From a virus: a stretch of 64,000 nt of DNA. The stretch is taken from positions 32,001-96,000 of IMG/VR virus record IMGVR_UViG_3300009161_000003; one strand, written 5' to 3'. Positions 3,035 through 23,377 of the stretch are shown one piece after another. The position numbers were made by a program, and so were the translations under genes. Each line of letters opens with the position of its first letter. The first letter of the stretch is position 1. The notes below the pieces were generated by a model that was given only the letters and a program-made list of their open reading frames with translations, ran no database searches and had not been told where the DNA came from.

Positions 3035-3466
3035 TTAATGCTTTGTAAATCTAAAAGCAGAACCATCCCATAAAGACTTTCCAAATGCAGGTTGTGCTTC
3101 ATCTTGTAAACTAAAAGCACTTCCCTCCCAAATTTTTTCTTTTTTATTTTTTTCACGATTAACTATGCCACGACTCCAACTAAACCCAGCATCTCCGCCC
3201 CATGCATCCCACATAATTCTTCCATTTGATGGGAACTCTGGACCAGAGTAAAACCCTTTACCTTTTTTATCTACTTCGTGACGGGAAAAGAAAGAATACA
3301 TTCTTTTAACGGTATCAAGCGACATTGCTGAACCATTAACAATATCTGTTGCTCTGCCCCAACCAACAGGAGTTCCTGCACCAGTTGCTTTTCCATCTTC
3401 TTTCCATTTAAGTGCACGTCTTGCTGCAGCCTTCATTCCAGAAGTTGGGCTATATGTGTCAGCCAT
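3035..3466 (-). CDS. phage protein (domain seen in head-associated proteins) with two C-terminal KxxW[DE]GSAF motifs
   Basis: P..GM...ARRAL.W, TVKRMYSFFSRH, AWGGDAG motifs. Confidence 0.6.
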   Translation of the reverse strand: MADTYSPTSGMKAAARRALKWKEDGKATGAGTPVGWGRATDIVNGSAMSLDTVKRMYSFFSRHEVDKKGKGFYSGPEFPSNGRIMWDAWGGDAGFSWSRGIVNREKNKKEKIWEGSAFSLQDEAQPAFGKSLWDGSAFRFTKH

Positions 3467-4041
3467 TACTTATTAAAGCCTCTTGTATCAAACATACTTC
3501 CATCCCAAACTGATTTTGTTGCAACTGAGTTTGATTTGTATGTTCCACCACGACGCTTGTATTCTTGAACTACCCAAGAATTTGCTACTGCACTTGGATA
3601 TACGTCAAACTTATCTTTTGCTGCTTGAACAACTCTAGCATAAAGTTTTGGGTTTGATGGATCAGATCCACCACTTCTTGGTTTAATAAAATCAGCATAG
3701 TTTGGTTTCTTTGCCTTATCAATTGATTCGTAATTTTCTTCCATTTTAAACTCCTTCATAGTCATATTATTAAATTTTCCATCAAGATCTGGAATAGTTA
3801 GTGGATCAATTTTAGTTACTAAAGAACCTTTTACTCCAACTAAACGTTCAGTTTCATCCCAGCCATAACCTTCTTCAAATTCAAGAATACGTACTAAAAC
3901 TGCTGGTTCTTCTGTTGAAGCCATTAAAGAATAATCAGAGTATTGTATTCCAAACATACCATCTGTCATAACATGCTGAACAATTCCAACGTAGGTTTCA
4001 TCGTCACCCTGTGCAAGAACAAAATCACCTTCAGATATCAT
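3466..4041 (-). CDS. two-domain phage protein; C-terminal DUF5872-like domain and KSVWDGSMF tail
   Basis: PSNPKLY...KFDVYPSA.AN..VVQEYKRRGG.YK; leaderless start. Confidence 0.55.
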   Translation of the reverse strand: MISEGDFVLAQGDDETYVGIVQHVMTDGMFGIQYSDYSLMASTEEPAVLVRILEFEEGYGWDETERLVGVKGSLVTKIDPLTIPDLDGKFNNMTMKEFKMEENYESIDKAKKPNYADFIKPRSGGSDPSNPKLYARVVQAAKDKFDVYPSAVANSWVVQEYKRRGGTYKSNSVATKSVWDGSMFDTRGFNK

Positions 4042-5052: not shown

Positions 5053-5762
5053 CTGAAATGATTAAAGCCGTTATTAACGGAGAGTTTGAAATTACTTTAC
5101 CAAAACATCGTGCAGATAGACCAGATTGGTATCAACCTCATGGCTGGGAGAAACCAAGACTAAAGCATATGTCAGAAAATATTGGATCTGGAGATGTTGT
5201 ATATTATGTTGGTGCAGAAGAAGGAGAGATGCCTGCTCTATGTCAGATGTGGGGTGCTGAGGTAGTTTTGTTTGAACCTAATCCAAAGGTTTGGTCGCAT
5301 TTCCCATTACTGTGGAGTGCAAATAATTTAGAAATGCCACTTGCTTGCCTTCCTGGATTTGCGTCAGACAAAGATAATAAACTTGCAAGAATATATTATG
5401 GAGAATTTCCACCAGAAGCAGATGCACCAATTGAAGCAGCACATGGATTTAAAGAACTTCAATATGAAGCAGATAAATATGGTCAAACAAAAATTGACAC
5501 TCTTGTTTATGAAAAAGGATTAAAGCCACCTACTGCAATTTCATTAGATGTTGAGGGTAGCGAATGGCGTGTACTTGGTGGTGCAGAAAAAGTTATGAGA
5601 GAGTTTAAACCAAAAATCTGGCTATCTGGTCATCCAGAATTTATGATGATGTATTGGAATGAATATCTTTACGATCTAAGACAATTTATTAAAGGCATTG
5701 GATATAAAGAAACTTTCCTTGACTATCAACATGAGGTACATTTATTCTATGAAGCAATCTAA
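5049..5762 (+). CDS. FkbM-family SAM methyltransferase
   Basis: YVGAEEG, FEPNP, ISLDVEGSEWRVLGG; ATGA-coupled start at 5049. Confidence 0.85.
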   Translation: MTEMIKAVINGEFEITLPKHRADRPDWYQPHGWEKPRLKHMSENIGSGDVVYYVGAEEGEMPALCQMWGAEVVLFEPNPKVWSHFPLLWSANNLEMPLACLPGFASDKDNKLARIYYGEFPPEADAPIEAAHGFKELQYEADKYGQTKIDTLVYEKGLKPPTAISLDVEGSEWRVLGGAEKVMREFKPKIWLSGHPEFMMMYWNEYLYDLRQFIKGIGYKETFLDYQHEVHLFYEAI

Positions 5763-13287: not shown

Positions 13288-13929
13288 CTAAAGTGATGTT
13301 ATTGTTATTTTTAGTTTAGGGCATTTAATAGATTTAATTGCCAAAAATTCTTTTTCATCTACAGAAAGTGACCATCTAATTTTAATTGAGACCCAATTTG
13401 AAATATATTGACATTTATATTTTTCATTTGTTGGCAGCCAATCTGCTGGATCTTGATCGCTTTTAGATCTATTTGATGAACCAGTTACCGCAATTAAATG
13501 TCTTGGGTCTGTTTGATCATTTGCATATAGTTCACGTTTTTTATCATCCCATGCAGAGGCTCCAGAATCCCAGGCTTCTGCAAGTGGAACCATATGGTCT
13601 ACATCTAATTTTCCAGCATCAGTTACTTTTACACTGTCATAAATACTAAACCATTCTCCGCCTTTAATTACACAGCCTTTTTCAACAACTGGTTTAATAA
13701 TTGCTTCTGAAATGATTACTGCTTTTCGTGAGTCGCATCCATTACCAACACCAACCCAGTGCTTAAACTTGGTCCTTACGTAGCCTGTACGATCTTCTGG
13801 GGCCACCTTTAAGGAATTTACTGCCTGATCTATAGAGTTATAGGAAATAGTCTTGCTAGGCAAAGCGTAGGCAGTATTTGTAAAGATAAAACTAATTAGT
13901 AATAAGGCTAAGACCATTTTTGATTTCAT
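13288..13929 (-). CDS. secreted HNH endonuclease (DUF1524-like)
   Basis: Signal peptide ending AYA; LDVDHMVPLAEAWDSGA...LIAV..SSNRSKSDQDPADWLP. Confidence 0.88.
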   Translation of the reverse strand: MKSKMVLALLLISFIFTNTAYALPSKTISYNSIDQAVNSLKVAPEDRTGYVRTKFKHWVGVGNGCDSRKAVIISEAIIKPVVEKGCVIKGGEWFSIYDSVKVTDAGKLDVDHMVPLAEAWDSGASAWDDKKRELYANDQTDPRHLIAVTGSSNRSKSDQDPADWLPTNEKYKCQYISNWVSIKIRWSLSVDEKEFLAIKSIKCPKLKITITSL

Positions 13930-14072: not shown

Positions 14073-14659
14073 TATTTTGCTGCCTTCTTTGCTACCTTTT
14101 TTGCTGCTGGTGGTGCTAATTTTACTTCAAGAGGAGTTGCTTCTTCACCTTTATAAATTGGACGACCCCAACCAACAATAGTGTTTACTAATTTTTTTCC
14201 ATTATCTTTTACATATGCCCGTGTTTTTTCAGCACACATCCCACCATTACGCTGATCTCCCTTAGCAGATCCAGCAGTATTTCCTTCAACGGTTTGAATG
14301 GTTCCGTCTCCATTGTTTTTAATACATAGACCTACGTGTGAAATTCGGTTAACGCCATCCTCTGGGAAGTCAAAATAAATCCAATCTCCAGGTGTTGGGT
14401 CATCATTACGAGCATCTGCCCATCGTTTATTTTTCTTAAACCAATCTGATGCTTCTACTGTTGAAGCAGATTTTGGATATTTCTTTGGATCTAGTCCTGA
14501 TGTAAATGCAGACCAAGAAACAAAAGACTGGCACCAAGGAAGAAAATTTGCACCTGTCCATTTGCCATACTTTGTTTCATTATCTTTTGGACCTTCAATA
14601 GTCCCTACTTCTTTCTTGGCGATTTCAATGATCGCTTCTACTGTGCCTTTTTCTGCCAT
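14072..14659 (-). CDS. endolysin, CHAP-family amidase/peptidase
   Basis: PWCQSFVSW (Cys), SHVGL (His), TVEGN; AKK-rich tail. Confidence 0.88.
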   Translation of the reverse strand: MAEKGTVEAIIEIAKKEVGTIEGPKDNETKYGKWTGANFLPWCQSFVSWSAFTSGLDPKKYPKSASTVEASDWFKKNKRWADARNDDPTPGDWIYFDFPEDGVNRISHVGLCIKNNGDGTIQTVEGNTAGSAKGDQRNGGMCAEKTRAYVKDNGKKLVNTIVGWGRPIYKGEEATPLEVKLAPPAAKKVAKKAAK

Positions 14660-14707: not shown

Positions 14708-15268
14708 TTATTGCAGGTCTGGATCTACATGTTGATATTGCGTGGTATGCATTAACAATAAAGTGTATCTTTTTCCATCTTCAATTGGAGTAATTCCATG
14801 CTTCCATTTTTCTCCGTCACTAATAAAAAATACAGCACTATATTTTTTTGGTTTATATTCAAAGTCTAAAACAGGAAAAAAAATCTTTCCTCCTAAAAAT
14901 TCATCATTTAAATAAATTACAGAACTATATTCAATAAATTTTTCTGGATCCTGATCATCAATATGAACCCCTCCAGAACTTCCTACGTTCCATACTGATC
15001 CAAAGGCTTTGAAACATTTAATTTGATTTTTTTCGTTTGGATTTAATTCTTGATGAATTAGGTTTGCTTTTAAAGCATATTTTTTTAAAAGACTAATGGT
15101 TGTTTTGTTATATGGAAATGCTGTTCCTCCGTATCTACTTTTATAATATTCTGGATAAGGATTTATTTCTGAAGGTTTATTGATTTCAGATATCAAAACA
15201 TTAGCATCTTCTTCACTAATAAAGTCATTAATTATAATTGGTTTATCTTTTATAGGCAAGTTAGTCAT
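14708..15268 (-). CDS. prolyl-4-hydroxylase-like 2OG-Fe(II) oxygenase
   Basis: HIDD, VIYLNDEFLGG, HGITPI..GKRY. Confidence 0.88.
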   Translation of the reverse strand: MTNLPIKDKPIIINDFISEEDANVLISEINKPSEINPYPEYYKSRYGGTAFPYNKTTISLLKKYALKANLIHQELNPNEKNQIKCFKAFGSVWNVGSSGGVHIDDQDPEKFIEYSSVIYLNDEFLGGKIFFPVLDFEYKPKKYSAVFFISDGEKWKHGITPIEDGKRYTLLLMHTTQYQHVDPDLQ

Positions 15269-15917: not shown

Positions 15918-16762
15918 TATGATACTTCTTTAACTCTAATTGAATCAAAACCAGGAAAATATCTATTTGTTTCTGAATCTAAATTAGAAGTAGTATTTTT
16001 GTATGATACTCCAATATTATCAAATGGCAAATAATTTATATCTAATATGTCAATATTTTTATATTTTTCAAAATTATTTAATTTGTTTTTATTTTTCTTT
16101 AAATAATTAATTGATTCATTGTAATTATGATACAGATCATATGAACAAAAAGAATCCTCTAAATTATTTACTTTTGAAATTAAGTAAAAACTAGACGGAC
16201 ATGAGTATATCTCAATATCATTTGCCATTAATTCTACTGAAAGTAAAATATCTTGTCCATAATATTTTAGATTATTTAAAATAGAAAAAAACTTTATATA
16301 TTTTTTATCTAAAAAAATAAAATTCATATCTACCCAATTATTTAAATAAAAATTATTTGAAAGTTCTTCGTTTTTATTTATTAAAAAATTATTAATAGAT
16401 AAATTAGTTTTTCCCTTTCCAGATATAATTAAATTATTTTTTGATTTTAAAAAATTTGTTAAAAGCATGTCCCAATTATTTATTAACTCTATATGTTCGC
16501 TTATTTCTAAAAAATAATCATAATTGGTTTTTAAAAACGTATATCTATAATGTGGAATCCCTACATGGTCATCCCATCTTACGTGATTATACTTAACATG
16601 ATGATTATTATAAAAATCTTTTTCCCTATTTATATTTGATTGGTCATAAATAAAAAATCTTAATGTTAAATTGCCACTAGATTTTTTTATAATGCTATCA
16701 ACGATTGACTTTAAATTTTTATTCTTATATGAATGAATAAAAATGCCAATAGTTTCTTTCAT
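15917..16762 (-). CDS. GT-A glycosyltransferase, GT60 (Skp1 GlcNAc-transferase)-like, possibly degenerate
   Basis: IFIHSYK...L...V.S; YDYFLEISEH..L..NWD resembles YxLQIDSH.RF..WD; TAATG-coupled start at 16762. Confidence 0.45.
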   Translation of the reverse strand: MKETIGIFIHSYKNKNLKSIVDSIIKKSSGNLTLRFFIYDQSNINREKDFYNNHHVKYNHVRWDDHVGIPHYRYTFLKTNYDYFLEISEHIELINNWDMLLTNFLKSKNNLIISGKGKTNLSINNFLINKNEELSNNFYLNNWVDMNFIFLDKKYIKFFSILNNLKYYGQDILLSVELMANDIEIYSCPSSFYLISKVNNLEDSFCSYDLYHNYNESINYLKKNKNKLNNFEKYKNIDILDINYLPFDNIGVSYKNTTSNLDSETNRYFPGFDSIRVKEVS

Positions 16763-18809: not shown

Positions 18810-18880
18810 AGCCTCTTGCAGGAATCGAACCTGCACCATCCGCTTACAAGGCGGAAGCACTGCCACTATGCTAAAGAGGC
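18810..18880 (-). tRNA. tRNA-Thr(UGU), CCA not encoded
   Basis: Acceptor GCCTCTT/AAGAGGC; D-loop AGTGG; anticodon stem TCCGC/GCGGA with loop CT-TGT-AA; T-arm GCAGG-TTCGATT-CCTGC. Confidence 0.95.
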
Positions 18881-20730: not shown

Positions 20731-20901
20731 TTATTCCTCCTTTTTATTTCTGATTGGATAACTTATCATCCAAGCAATAAATGTACCTATAATTGCATAA
20801 CCAACTACTGTTTTAGCACTTCCGTCTAAAACAACCCAGGCAATGAACATGCCAAGGATGGTCCAAAGTTGATCTATCATATCTTTTAGTATTTTTACCA
20901 T
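20731..20901 (-). CDS. 56-aa 2-TM membrane protein (not in ORF track)
   Basis: [56 protein letters not shown]; overlaps the stop of the PA14 gene. Confidence 0.75.
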
Positions 20902-23189
20902 CTCTCATTCCTCCTTGACCCTGATGAGCCACTGCCTGACCCTCCAGAATTTCCTCCTCCAGTTGACCCACCTGAAGATCCTGCTGCGCCTGCTGCTCCT
21001 GTGGCTGCTCCAACAGCATTAATTGCTGCTCCTGCAGCGATAACTGTTGCAACAACTGCGTCTGTAGATTCATTTCTTTCTTCATCACTCATGTCTGCTC
21101 CAACATTTCCAAATGCTGCCAATGCTGCTCCTGGATCTGAAAATGCTGCTGATAACAACGCTCCTGGGTCTGTCAATAACTCTAAAGAAACAGCAACTTC
21201 TGCTGTAATCACAACTTCATTTCCATTCACATCTGTACGAACCTCAACTGGAGTTTCTGGTGGAAGATCTTGTAACTGAATGCCTGCTTCAGCAACCTGT
21301 TCTTTTGTAAGGTTTTCTCCTGGCGCTACAGATTGAATAAGAGCGTCAGCAACAATATTTTTTTCTGCTTCAGATAACTTTCCATCTCCACTTACTAAAT
21401 CAATAATTGCTTTTAAATCTTCTTTTGAAACTTCTCCATCTGAAGCAAGTGCATCTAATACTGCTTCTTTATCTGCCAATGAAAGTTTTCCATCTTTTGC
21501 TAATGCTTCAATTAATTGATTAGTTTCTTTTGTATCAATTTTTCCATCTGCAGACATTACATCTGCAATATCTGAAACTTCTGAACTATCTAATTTACCA
21601 TCAGACAATGCATCAGACACAGTGTTATTTACTGCTTCTTGAGTTCCATTATCTATAGCATCTGCTTCAGCCTGTGCATTTGCTTCTTCTTGTGCCAGTG
21701 CTTCAGACTCTGCTTTAGCATTCGCCTCTTCTTGTGCTAATGCTTCGGCTTCTGCCTGAGCATCCGCTTCTGCTTGTGCTTGAGCCTCTGCTTCTGCTTT
21801 AGCGTCTGCCTCAGCCTGCGCTAGTGCTTCGGCCTCTGCTTGGGCATCAAGTGTTGCTTGTGCTAATGCCTCAGCCTCCGCTCTTGCATCCGCTTCTGCT
21901 TGTGCTTGAGCCTCTGCCTCTGCTTGTGCTTGAGCCTCTGCCTCTGCTTGTGCTTGTGCATCTGCAATTGCTTGCGCTTGAGCCTCTGCTTGTGCTTGTG
22001 CTGCATTTGCTGCTGCTATTGCAGCATTTTGTGCAGCAACTTGTGCGTTATATGCAGCAATGGCTGCTTCGGCCTCTGCTTGGGCTTGTGCTGCTTGTTG
22101 TGCAATTAATCTTGCTGCTTCTTCTTCTAGTCTTGCAATTTCAGCAAGTCTAGCAATTTCTGCTAACCTGTCTATCTCAGCAAGTCTAGCAACCTCAGCA
22201 AGTCTAGCAACTTCCGCAAGACGTGCAATCTCTGCTAATCGTGCAACCTCTGCTAAACGGGCAACCTCTGCAAGTCTGGCTTCCTCTGCTTGTGCATCAA
22301 TGATCGCTTGCGCTGCTGCAATTTCTTCTGCAGTAAGACCTATCTTTAATGTAACAACGTTTGAATTTGCAGAATACATTTGCAATGTATCGTTATCTGA
22401 TCTAATATTAAATGACCAAACCGTTCCACTTGGCTTTAGATTTGTTAGTACTGAGTGGTTAATTGTTATTGTTGTATTAAGAGAGTTGGGTTCTCCAACA
22501 TTTCCTGTTGCTATTCCCCATCCCCCGCCATCTGCGCTAAAAGAAATAGCATATCTTTCTGGCTGAGTATTACCAGTATTAGGTGCTTCCCAAGTTAATA
22601 CTGTTGATGTTTCTCCATCTACTACTGTTAAATTTCTTGGGGCACCTATAGTTAGGGGTGCTTGTGAAGTAAAGGCTTCTGCTGGAATAATTTGCATTGA
22701 TCCAGATTGATTCCAATATAGGAACACATTTGCTCCCCCACCATTTTCGTAATACATTAATTCTATAGTTTTAGGAACTCCTGCTGTAAAAGAAACTGGA
22801 GCACTTGTAGTTCCTCCACCACCCTTATCACGCCAGTCGTTTGTTATTAAAGTGCCATCAAGATATAATTTAGTTCCATCATCTGCTGTTGCTAAAAACG
22901 ATATGTTTTGGGTAGTGTTGCTAAGTATTGATCCTGTAAATCTTACAATTACGTCTTCTGAAGGTCCTCCAAGAACACTTCCACTTCCCCATTGAAAATT
23001 AATATTGGGCACAGTTGTTATTAAAGTTGGAGACATTCCTTGTGGTATATAGGGAGCAGCATTTTGACCTTGCACATTATAGACTTCTGCAGTTAAACCC
23101 TCTGTTGCATGGGCTTTTTCTGAGTACCCGAAAAATAAAGACCCGACGACAAGGCCTAAAACAATTAACGTTCTAAGTGATTTTTTCAG
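20895..23189 (-). CDS. secreted PA14 + FN3 + Ala-rich coiled-coil + EF-hand-like repeat protein with C-terminal hydrophobic segment; CTG start
   Basis: PA14 ([25 protein letters not shown]); FN3 (APRNL...LTWEAP); in-frame signal peptide from CTG at 23189 behind AGGAG/GGGG. Confidence 0.8.
21661..22000 (-). repeat. coding tandem repeat, ~30-nt unit ([10 protein letters not shown]-like)
   Basis: Visible tgcttgtgcttgagcctctgc units. Confidence 0.85.
22128..22287 (-). repeat. coding tandem repeat, 18-nt unit (AE[VI]ARL x ~9)
   Basis: Protein repeat with diversified synonymous codons. Confidence 0.9.
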
Positions 23190-23204
23190 TTCCCCTTCTC
23201 CTAG

Positions 23205-23234
23205 GTCAACATTGTTGACTATTATATTATAACA
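23205..23234 (-). promoter_or_regulatory. extended -10 (TGTTATAAT) followed by palindrome GTCAAC-N3-GTTGAC at about +1
   Basis: -10 at 23226-23231; palindrome at 23205-23219. Confidence 0.6.
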
Positions 23235-23241
23235 TTATATT

Positions 23242-23360
23242 AAAAAGTGAGCAGTTTATAGACAACTACTCGGGTCTATCGTTCACGGTATTAACCTAAC
23301 GACTCTCATATAGAGCATCCGTATTAAATATAGCCGATCAATGTTTCATAATCTCTATAA
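23242..23360 (-). ncRNA. candidate structured ncRNA with pseudoknots
   Basis: Own TATAAT (23367-23372); no meaningful ORF; several complementary segments; ends in hairpin plus T-run. Confidence 0.5.
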
Positions 23361-23377
23361 CTATATATTATACAGAA

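Follow-up and report, generated by a model that had tools for sequence, protein, structure and literature searches.

We have analyzed a short intergenic interval in a stretch of phage DNA of 64,000 nucleotides (nt), referred to below as the window, which corresponds to positions 32001-96000 of the complete, 112,922-bp IMG/VR virus record IMGVR_UViG_3300009161_000003; the record carries direct terminal repeats. On the minus strand the order of genes is that for a Big_1-domain protein, hsp20, the interval of interest and a gene for a secreted PA14/fn3 protein. The interval is predicted to hold a stand-alone gene for a phage non-coding RNA of ~115 nt, starting at ~23360 and ending near 23243, the last part of which is a small H-type pseudoknot (the knot). 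The knot is a widespread cross-phylum module of gene ends that is not peculiar to the RNA of the window, a point absent from an earlier, sequence-only reading of the locus. The phage genome encodes a WhiB protein. This family is confined to actinobacteria and their phages, and thus the host is probably an actinobacterium. The positions of the features are collected in Table 1.

The interval downstream of hsp20

Two sets of relatives were used. The first comprises 80 loci (L001 onward) encoding relatives of the Hsp20 protein, in which the DNA 3′ of the stop codon was read. The second was collected from IMG/VR with a pattern joining ACGGAUG to a knot of the AUAGAC type, and places the small RNA (sRNA) family in at least 119 contigs, with 132 instances, 64 distinct cores and 76 distinct full sequences. 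The RNA and knot collections were scanned with exact patterns, so that the counts are lower bounds and are biased to canonical sequence; statistics of gene context rest on crude calls of open reading frames (ORFs).

Table 1. Features of the RNA interval and its surroundings (window coordinates unless stated otherwise; P, stem; L, loop)
Feature	Coordinates	Strand	Basis or remark
hsp20	23794-23378	minus	
-10 box TATAAT	23367-23372	minus	read directly
Lineage-specific 5′ hairpin domain UAUAG.GAUUA...UGAUC..CUAUA	23324-23361	minus	minimum-free-energy fold alone
Single-stranded block ACGGAUG	23316-23322	minus	identical in 67/67 homologues, 64/64 distinct cores
Helix H1, hairpin CUC-UAUAU-GAG	23305-23315	minus	covariation; linker AG at 23304-23303
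Helix H2, UCGUU (23302-23298) with AACGA (23283-23279)	23279-23302	minus	covariation
Hairpin H3 inside H2, GGU-UAAU-ACC	23296-23287	minus	hairpin of variable length, 19/19 distinct variants
Conserved GUG inside H2	23286-23284	minus	
H-type pseudoknot	23249-23277	minus	sequence and covariation
P1, AGAC with GUCU	23277-23274 with 23263-23260	minus	
L1, CC	23273-23272	minus	
P2, GAGUAG with CUGCUC	23271-23266 with 23254-23249	minus	
L2, UU	23265-23264	minus	
L3, AUAAA	23259-23255	minus	
ACUUUUU (AC and U-run)	23242-23248	minus	putative 3′ end of the RNA
PA14/fn3 expression signals	23187-23239	minus	read directly; separate from the RNA
Three overlapping -10-like boxes of PA14/fn3	23239-23234, 23231-23226, 23226-23221	minus	
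Hairpin GUCAAC-AAU-GUUGAC before PA14/fn3	23218-23204	minus	
Shine-Dalgarno AGGAG of PA14/fn3	23202-23198	minus	
CUG start of PA14/fn3	23189-23187	minus	
Four further knot copies (whole-record coordinates, outside the window)	13664-13693, 14240-14266, 15090-15116, 16211-16237	plus	after early genes

The sequence-only reading had begun the element with a TATAAT box, and this is present. All 67 aligned homologues have a -10 box (consensus TAGTATAAT) upstream of the RNA at a constant spacing. Transcription would start ~7 nt past the box, and this spacing matches that of the TGGTATAAT-N7-ATG promoters of leaderless type that are used in the same genome. In whole-record coordinates, an extended -10 box (TGGTATAAT or GAGTATAAT) followed by 7 nt and then ATG is found at 5329, 5880, 7150 (minus) and 16408 (plus), an arrangement that suggests leaderless mRNAs, which are frequent in actinobacteria. 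The interval also lacks a real ORF, as had been noted. Its longest ATG-started frame has 11 codons, and the only two minus-strand stop-to-stop frames that overlap it have 20 and 23 codons, the longer one overlapping the end of hsp20. The 11-codon frame is not kept in the family, whose consensus reads AUG CUC CUA UGA, and a small peptide product is ruled out by this lack of conservation.

The fold energy of the whole 131 nt gives z = −1.08, compared with z = −3.6 for the pseudoknot segment; the P2 hairpin has −8.7 kcal mol-1 and z = −4.4. Fold energy alone is thus not significant, and the case for the RNA rests on comparative data.

Covariation among the homologues, which had been put forward as a check, is seen for H1, H2 and H3 and for both stems of the knot. 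The terminal stem of H1 has at least 3 bp in 29/29 distinct sequences (5 bp in 19) against 7.6% of shuffles, and its compensatory types include CUCCC/GGGAG, CUCUU/AAGAG, UUCCC/GGGAA and GUCUA/UAGAC. RNAalifold analysis of 67 sequences revealed four pairs of H2 changed on both sides (UA48/CG10/UG8; AU45/GC11/GU11; GC60/UA5; CG61/UA6). The CUCU/AGAG hairpin (H1) and the UCGUU/AACGA pairing (H2) of the sequence-only reading are therefore borne out in the 67 homologues. The complementarity UACGG/CCGUG, which it had crossed with H2, is also present, but ACGG is invariant and its partner varies between C and U only, so that covariation gives no verdict; this pairing would overlap the conserved hairpin H3. 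A tRNA-like reading of the whole RNA, suggested by a T-loop-like UCGAAU in H3, was dropped because neither the loop nor the stem is constant in length, and UAAU stands in this place in the window. At the 5′ side, the hairpin domain is 92-96% conserved in L002-L007, sequences too similar for covariation, and other lineages have a different domain (an AUUCCG-hairpin) in the same position.

The knot directly follows H2 throughout the 67-sequence family alignment. The H-type pseudoknot predicted earlier (AUAGAC/GUCUAU crossed with GAGUAG/CUGCUC, then ACUUUUU, at 23279-23242) is present, with a shorter first stem. By homology the core of P1 would be AGAC/GUCU, and the flanking AU dinucleotides would belong to the 3′ strand of H2 and to L3. 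Two arguments lead to this assignment: the L3 consensus of the general motif is NNAAAC and, from known pseudoknot geometry, an L3 of 3 nt should be too short to cross a P1 of 6 bp. The GAGUA/UGCUC variant of P2 contains a frequent U-G pair, which places the fold in the sense RNA strand. An element acting at the level of DNA is ruled out, since on the opposite strand the U-G pair would become an A-C mismatch, and since the knot is oriented as the genes are.

As a gene, then, the interval has a conserved -10 box, a U-run or the next promoter after it, no conserved ORF, and copies that are independent of hsp20, the features expected of a stand-alone sRNA predicted from sequence. Although 88/132 family instances lie behind hsp20, 44/132 are located elsewhere. 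The next -10 box occurs within 35 nt after the RNA in 95/132, and in 36 of these the box leads to another structured RNA, which has a long closing stem.

We have weighed the simpler explanation that the interval contains a plain intrinsic terminator for hsp20, the other pairings being due to chance in AT-rich DNA, with no separate RNA gene. The element lies directly 3′ of hsp20, its whole fold is no better than that of shuffles, and a terminator scan reported 23271-23249 plus the T-run; indeed the P2 hairpin with its U-run looks like an intrinsic terminator. Yet this explanation is contradicted by the covariation of P1, H1 and H2, by the -10 box conserved before the body in 67 homologues, by the copies away from hsp20, and by knot-only relatives showing that the body is a separate insertion. 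We consider it very improbable.

Exchange of the RNA body and the PA14/fn3 gene

Close relatives of the window locus differ in what lies between hsp20 and the knot. In L008-L010, where Hsp20 is 87% identical, the knot stands alone, 7 nt after the stop codon; the U-run and -10 boxes of the window come next, and then a PA14-like gene with the start codon TTG. In L005, where Hsp20 is 97% identical, a different RNA module precedes the knot. It follows that the body is an optional, exchangeable insert between the promoter behind hsp20 and a constant knot, and that PA14 does not depend on the body.

The same slot contains other structured RNA modules in further relatives (for example L058 ~3400-3520, L027 ~3420-3520 and L072 ~3550-3650), with no Rfam match. 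One is a two-level hairpin, CUGCACCCC..GGGGAGUCGCAG, whose inner stem covaries; another is a GUCGGGGGAGACAGCGAC hairpin; and a third, with a TGCTACAAT promoter of its own, is an RNA of ~85 nt whose closing stem (GUCCCCACACAGG/CCUGUGUGGGGC) has 12 bp. An array of five tRNA genes lies directly upstream of hsp20 in L072 (2549-2930), and in some relatives tRNAs, hsp20, the small RNA and a further structured RNA form a region rich in RNA genes. In the window, a tRNA gene is found on the same strand as the RNA element and 4.4 kb downstream of it (18810-18880, minus; 70 bits with Rfam), called by ARAGORN as tRNA-Thr with anticodon TGT.

These comparisons bear on the possibility that the RNA is a cis-acting leader of PA14/fn3 (a riboswitch or attenuator) or a self-cleaving ribozyme, both of which the sequence-only reading had entertained. 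The RNA does lie upstream of PA14 on the same strand, its pairing is dense, and neighboring bases in the window have alternative uses, in the 8-bp terminator hairpin or in the 4-6-bp P1. Against a leader, the PA14-like gene, its promoter boxes and the knot are kept in L008-L010 in the absence of the ~90-nt body, a different RNA module occupies the same place in L005, and in the window the stretch between the RNA and PA14 contains the U-run and three further -10 boxes. Elsewhere among phages, members of the family stand before a wide variety of genes or before another RNA gene, and a junction loop of 1-2 nt would leave no obvious ligand pocket. Searches of Rfam 15 gave no match in the interval at the gathering score or at E ≤ 10, to a riboswitch, a ribozyme or any other family, and we found no indication of cleavage; no match was obtained either on knot-rich loci or on the relatives with other RNA modules. 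A leader or ribozyme is thus highly unlikely.

The signal peptide of the PA14/fn3 protein is clear and begins upstream of the first ATG, GTG or TTG; the CTG at 23189 is the sole start codon behind AGGAG, and the L009/L010 homologue starts with TTG at the aligned position. Residues ~290-520 of the protein (20895-23186, minus) form a long stretch of low complexity, with repeats (12 protein letters not shown) followed by AQAEAEA-type repeats, features suggestive of a stalk, coiled or extended, that links the PA14/fn3 head with the C-terminal part.

The knot as a motif and its placement in genomes

In general form the knot motif is 27-31 nt long and reads P1 (any sequence), CU, GAGCA, N, P1′, NNAAAC, UGCUC, A. 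The P1a strand has 4-7 nt of any sequence ending in C, L1 has 2 nt, L2 has 1 nt in 205/271 copies, P1b and L3 together have a constant length of ~10 nt, and L3 ends in AAAC. Nearly all of the 80 hsp20-relative loci carry the knot. A structural scan found 5 good copies in the 112.9-kb genome, compared with ~1.35 matches per shuffled genome. Behind two of the early-gene copies there is first a small GC-rich hairpin, with TGTCCG-type boxes and TTGACT-17-TAAAAT promoters next. A pattern that fixes the loops and P2 while leaving P1 free matched at least 120 stretches in IMG/VR and at least 120 in GTDB species genomes, and the knot occurs in hundreds of IMG/VR contigs.

Both stems are supported by pairing that the search pattern did not demand. 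Among the matches listed, P1 was paired at 4/4 positions in 98/132 distinct viral matches against 13/528 slid controls, and in 41/119 matches from bacterial genomes against 10/476 slid controls. For a gapless alignment of 94 pattern-only matches the P1 covariation score was 0.428, whereas shuffles gave 0.120 (0/500 reach the observed score) and slid versions ≤0.10; the two inner pairs were GC37/AU22/CG20/UA15 and UA44/AU40/CG7/GC2, with 0-1 unpaired cells. As many as 40 different P1 tetramers occur among 271 unique copies. When pairing of P2 was not required, 21/45 sites with a paired P1 and a non-canonical 5′ strand were fully complementary, and doubly compensated forms include AAGCA/UGCUU, GGGUA/UACCC, GGACA/UGUCC and AGCCA/UGGCU. 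With interleaved helices that carry compensatory changes, and loop lengths compatible with the grooves, the knot is a classical H-type pseudoknot.

In 69% of copies P2 is followed by A, and pyrimidines come next, U being as common as C at +2/+3. U makes up only 42-58% at positions +2 to +7, and ACC or ACUAAU is a frequent continuation. The U-run that follows the knot in the window lineage and in L008-L011 is lacking in most other copies.

The conservation of CCUGAGCA...AAACUGCUC across phyla exceeds the needs of pairing. This could mean that the loop and P2 are the binding site of a phage RNA-binding regulator or of a host protein (a ribosomal one, for example) that controls the neighboring genes, with the sRNA as a sponge. 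Pseudoknot operators exist for T4 gene 32, S15 and S4, and there are several knot copies per genome. We found no protein family that always accompanies the knot, with 26 PHROGs represented among 100 upstream proteins, and a host-specific partner is hard to reconcile with hosts as different as those in which the knot occurs. Known structures would moreover lead one to expect just these conserved loop bases in the triples of a compact knot. We consider a protein site improbable.

The knot is placed in a characteristic way. It is co-oriented with genes, only 7/306 unique copies lying inside a same-strand ORF of at least 80 codons. The spacing between the upstream stop codon and the CUGAG block is most often 9-10 nt and has a sharp lower limit of 9 nt, so that P1 starts 5-6 nt after the stop. 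Distances of 9, 10, 11, 12 and 13 nt occur, in three phases with no preference. Start codons of the following genes are found 20 to several hundred nt past the knot, typically at 20-30 nt. A signal for -1 frameshifting or stop codon read-through is ruled out by the three phases and by the absence of a slippery site.

Bacterial matches span Saccharibacteria, Aminicenantes, Firmicutes, Bacteroidota, Actinobacteriota, Chloroflexota and Cyanobacteria. Bacterial genomes contain 1-4 copies clustered on one strand in gene contexts of prophage type, which rules out a genome-wide bacterial repeat of the repetitive extragenic palindromic (REP) kind; the copy in Lacticaseibacillus suibinensis 247-3, for instance, sits between prophage genes for head morphogenesis and scaffold. 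An unannotated canonical copy is present in the cultured Methylophilales phage Melnitz-1, whose host is OM43 (MZ577095.1, 46487-46514; UAUC CU AAGCA A GAUA UCAAAC UGCUU). This copy stands between genes _91 and _92, 5 nt past the TAG stop of the former and ahead of the Shine-Dalgarno sequence of the latter. The Melnitz phages have an ordinary hairpin, not the knot, after their hsp20.

A tRNA gene on the same strand begins 2-13 nt (mode 4) downstream of 21/306 copies, compared with 1/306 in which a tRNA ends within 30 nt upstream. One example is the copy of the present genome at 16211-16237, which follows a DUF932-like gene and ends 2 nt before tRNA-Asp (16240-16314). Among 100 upstream proteins, 15 belong to a single PHROG, that of the DUF932-like gene that precedes knot and tRNA in many phages; the knot-tRNA cases as a whole involve several different tRNAs and upstream genes. 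The knot occurs at 7.3% of co-directional junctions and at 3.5% of convergent ones. A strong terminator at the ends of transcription units is ruled out, because there is no enrichment at convergent junctions and tRNAs lie directly downstream.

This strong, one-sided association with tRNA genes is what would be seen if the knot mimicked the acceptor/T minihelix of tRNA, and served RNase P or another tRNA-end enzyme as a site for cleaving polycistronic phage transcripts. Bacterial RNase P favors a pattern of -1 U, G1-C72 and A73, and the knot has U before P2, G-C as the first pair of P2, A after P2 in most copies and pyrimidines next; in 3/5 copies of the genome ACC follows. However, the stacked helices total only 9-10 bp, where a tRNA minihelix has 12 bp, CCA is not conserved, and the copy in the window is followed by ACU. 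Neither ARAGORN nor the Rfam tRNA model detects the knot. Cleavage inside the knot would also destroy P1, making the strong covariation of P1 harder to explain. We regard this mimicry as distinctly unlikely, and for the same reasons of stack length, 3′ sequence and ARAGORN result the knot differs from a tRNA-like structure of the turnip yellow mosaic virus type, in which the 3′ sequence is ACC(A).

The sequence beyond the knot is relevant to a further alternative, in which the knot is a bacterial exonuclease-resistant RNA (xrRNA) of the coremin type that blocks RNase J, acting 5′ to 3′ on the upstream cistron, and so protects the gene or tRNA downstream. Actinobacteria have RNase J. The short distance at which the next start codon is typically found would suit such a role, as would those relatives in which the knot stands in a 5′ leader, right before a Shine-Dalgarno sequence and an ORF. 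In the window, on the other hand, a U-run and new promoters follow, so that nothing lies downstream on the same transcript. More generally the knot is anchored to the upstream stop codon by the sharp floor of 9-10 nt whereas the distance to the next gene varies widely. Downstream tRNAs need no 5′ protection, and frameshift pseudoknots of similar shape are not known to stall Xrn1.

Coremin, an element of plant, fungal and insect RNA viruses, is described as blocking the eukaryotic 5′-3′ exonuclease Xrn1 mechanically and as able to stall ribosomes (PMC10321173, PMC10520033). Its hairpin hp1 has a loop of 4-6 nt, its conserved spacer ends in CUAC and its second stem has no more than three pairs; a further hairpin downstream, hp2, is obligatory (PMC10321173). 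Coremin is like the knot in being very small, with a short first stem and a pyrimidine-only first loop, and its Watson-Crick variant shares the second stem GAG/CUC and has the spacer GUUAAAC compared with NUUAAAC of the knot (PMC10321173, PMC10520033). The knot is unlike coremin in having a second stem of 5-6 Watson-Crick pairs, a P1 loop of 8-10 nt that holds the 5-6-nt S2 strand, and the 3′ strand UGCUC. A downstream mini-hairpin is present in some lineages only, so that neither the second hairpin that coremin needs nor its 3-bp second stem fits the knot. The knot is moreover found in DNA phages of bacteria and is anchored to the 3′ ends of genes. As compared from their sequences, the relationship is one of resemblance and not of membership, and a block to RNase J seems to us rather unlikely.

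Proposed function and significance

The reading that we favor, with a probability of roughly 0.5, is that the interval encodes a stand-alone phage sRNA whose 3′ end would be formed and shielded by the knot and U-run. Transcription would start ~7 nt after TATAAT and end at the U-run, giving the ~115-nt non-coding RNA. The knot would fold once its 3′ strand had been made and, with the U-run, would help to stop RNA polymerase at this locus. A compact, mechanically stable 3′ end would remain, which exonucleases could not enter, and the sRNA, or elsewhere the upstream message, would persist. Where a tRNA lies downstream, cleavage by RNase P would leave the knot as the 3′ end of the upstream message. 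The knot itself might be of triplex type, with the C-U loop lying over G-C and A-U pairs of P2, a junction of 1 nt, and the A-rich loop in the minor groove of P1.

A module for RNA ends is preferred because it covers most of the facts, namely a small knot with conserved loops and a free P1, the anchorage at gene 3′ ends, the occurrence in co-directional strings of genes, the sites before tRNAs and those at the 3′ ends of non-coding RNAs. Resistance to nucleases, one of the roles considered in the sequence-only reading, would fit the genomic placement of the module. As for the body of the RNA, our guess is that it is a stable trans-acting regulatory or decoy RNA, on the ground that it is exchanged as a cassette, at one and the same site, between near-identical phages.

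The knot can be compared with several known systems. Luteovirus and polerovirus frameshift knots of the beet western yellows virus (BWYV) type have a first stem of 4-5 bp, a 2-nt loop starting with C, a 1-nt junction and an A-rich last loop of 6-7 nt ending in AAAC, all like the phage knot. In BWYV the loops form base triples, making an unusually stable knot of 28 nt. The phage knot differs in having a longer second stem and no slippery heptamer upstream; together with the lack of phase preference after the stop codon, these differences imply that recoding is not its role. Intrinsic terminators and 3′ stabilizers (REP elements, remnants of T7 RNase III sites) also lie just after genes on the sense strand, with a U-run in the case of the window, and the proposed effect, of defining and protecting an RNA 3′ end in polycistronic phage transcripts, would be alike. 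The phage structure is instead a pseudoknot with conserved loops and not a GC-rich hairpin, and unlike terminators most knots have no U-run, require read-through where tRNAs are close, and are not enriched at convergent ends. The 3′ ends of MALAT1 and MEN-beta provide a parallel to the 21 knots before tRNAs, in that a stabilizing structure stands a few nt from an RNase P substrate; those RNAs are eukaryotic, with a U-rich clamp around an A-rich tail, and the phage case has a true tRNA in place of a mimic. The preQ1-I riboswitch is a small pseudoknot with an A-rich tail, a ligand pocket where its helices join and a second stem that masks the Shine-Dalgarno sequence of a queuosine-related gene. 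The phage knot is not of this type: we found no Rfam hit here, the knot has a 1-nt junction, the Shine-Dalgarno sequence lies ~10 nt beyond it, and the downstream genes are unrelated.

Several points weigh against the favored reading. The start, 3′ end and stability of the transcript are all predicted, and the 5′ hairpin of the window lineage, a minimum-free-energy model without comparative support, is the weakest part. The fold energy of the whole element is no better than that of shuffles. Most knot copies elsewhere have no U-run, and the frequencies at co-directional and convergent junctions, with the read-through needed for close tRNAs, imply that the knot is not a strong terminator in general. 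Since 15 of 100 upstream proteins fall in one PHROG, part of the tRNA association reflects a single synteny, and there must be fewer than 21 independent events. In relatives of the L058 type an ORF with its Shine-Dalgarno sequence comes directly after the promoter, RNA modules and knot, so that with the knot in the 5′ leader it could be the downstream rather than the upstream RNA that is protected. Finally, the strong sequence conservation of the loops and P2 could equally reflect a protein or enzyme partner.

A wider proposal, speculative and rather doubtful in its entirety, would treat the knot as a portable phage RNA end cap, analogous to xrRNAs and MALAT1, that makes the RNA before or behind it resistant to exonucleases. 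It might set the lifetimes of cistrons, partly with tRNAs as RNase P cut sites, and might serve to build swappable promoter-to-knot sRNA cassettes that act in trans on the host, for example as decoys against RNA-targeting defenses.

Both the knot and the sRNA family are absent from Rfam 15. Full-text literature searches found no description of the knot or of the ~115-nt RNA family, and BLAST gave no match to the ~115-nt RNA among 50,697 isolate phage records. In the parts consulted, one report presents thousands of unnamed candidate structures of phages, without pseudoknots (PMC10690425), another the class 3 xrRNA, whose fold differs from that of the knot (PMC11702639), and a 2026 preprint the UG27 non-coding RNA arrays, with units of ~150 nt that are unrelated to the RNA of the window. 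What the present analysis adds is the ~115-nt RNA family, its cassette-like replacement and the knot copy in a cultured phage.

If the favored reading is correct, a 27-nt RNA module that marks and protects the ends of transcripts is common to phages of many bacterial phyla. Phage gene expression would then have a new and simple level of post-transcriptional control, one that could be compared with the exonuclease-resistant RNAs of eukaryotic viruses, and the freedom of the first stem to vary would make the module a compact, programmable tool for stabilizing mRNAs and sRNAs in bacteria. The module is also predicted to cap independently transcribed sRNAs that are exchanged between near-identical phages. 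The phage of the window comes from a lake, and these exchanged, knot-capped RNAs suggest that freshwater actinophages possess a repertoire of small RNAs yet to be explored.

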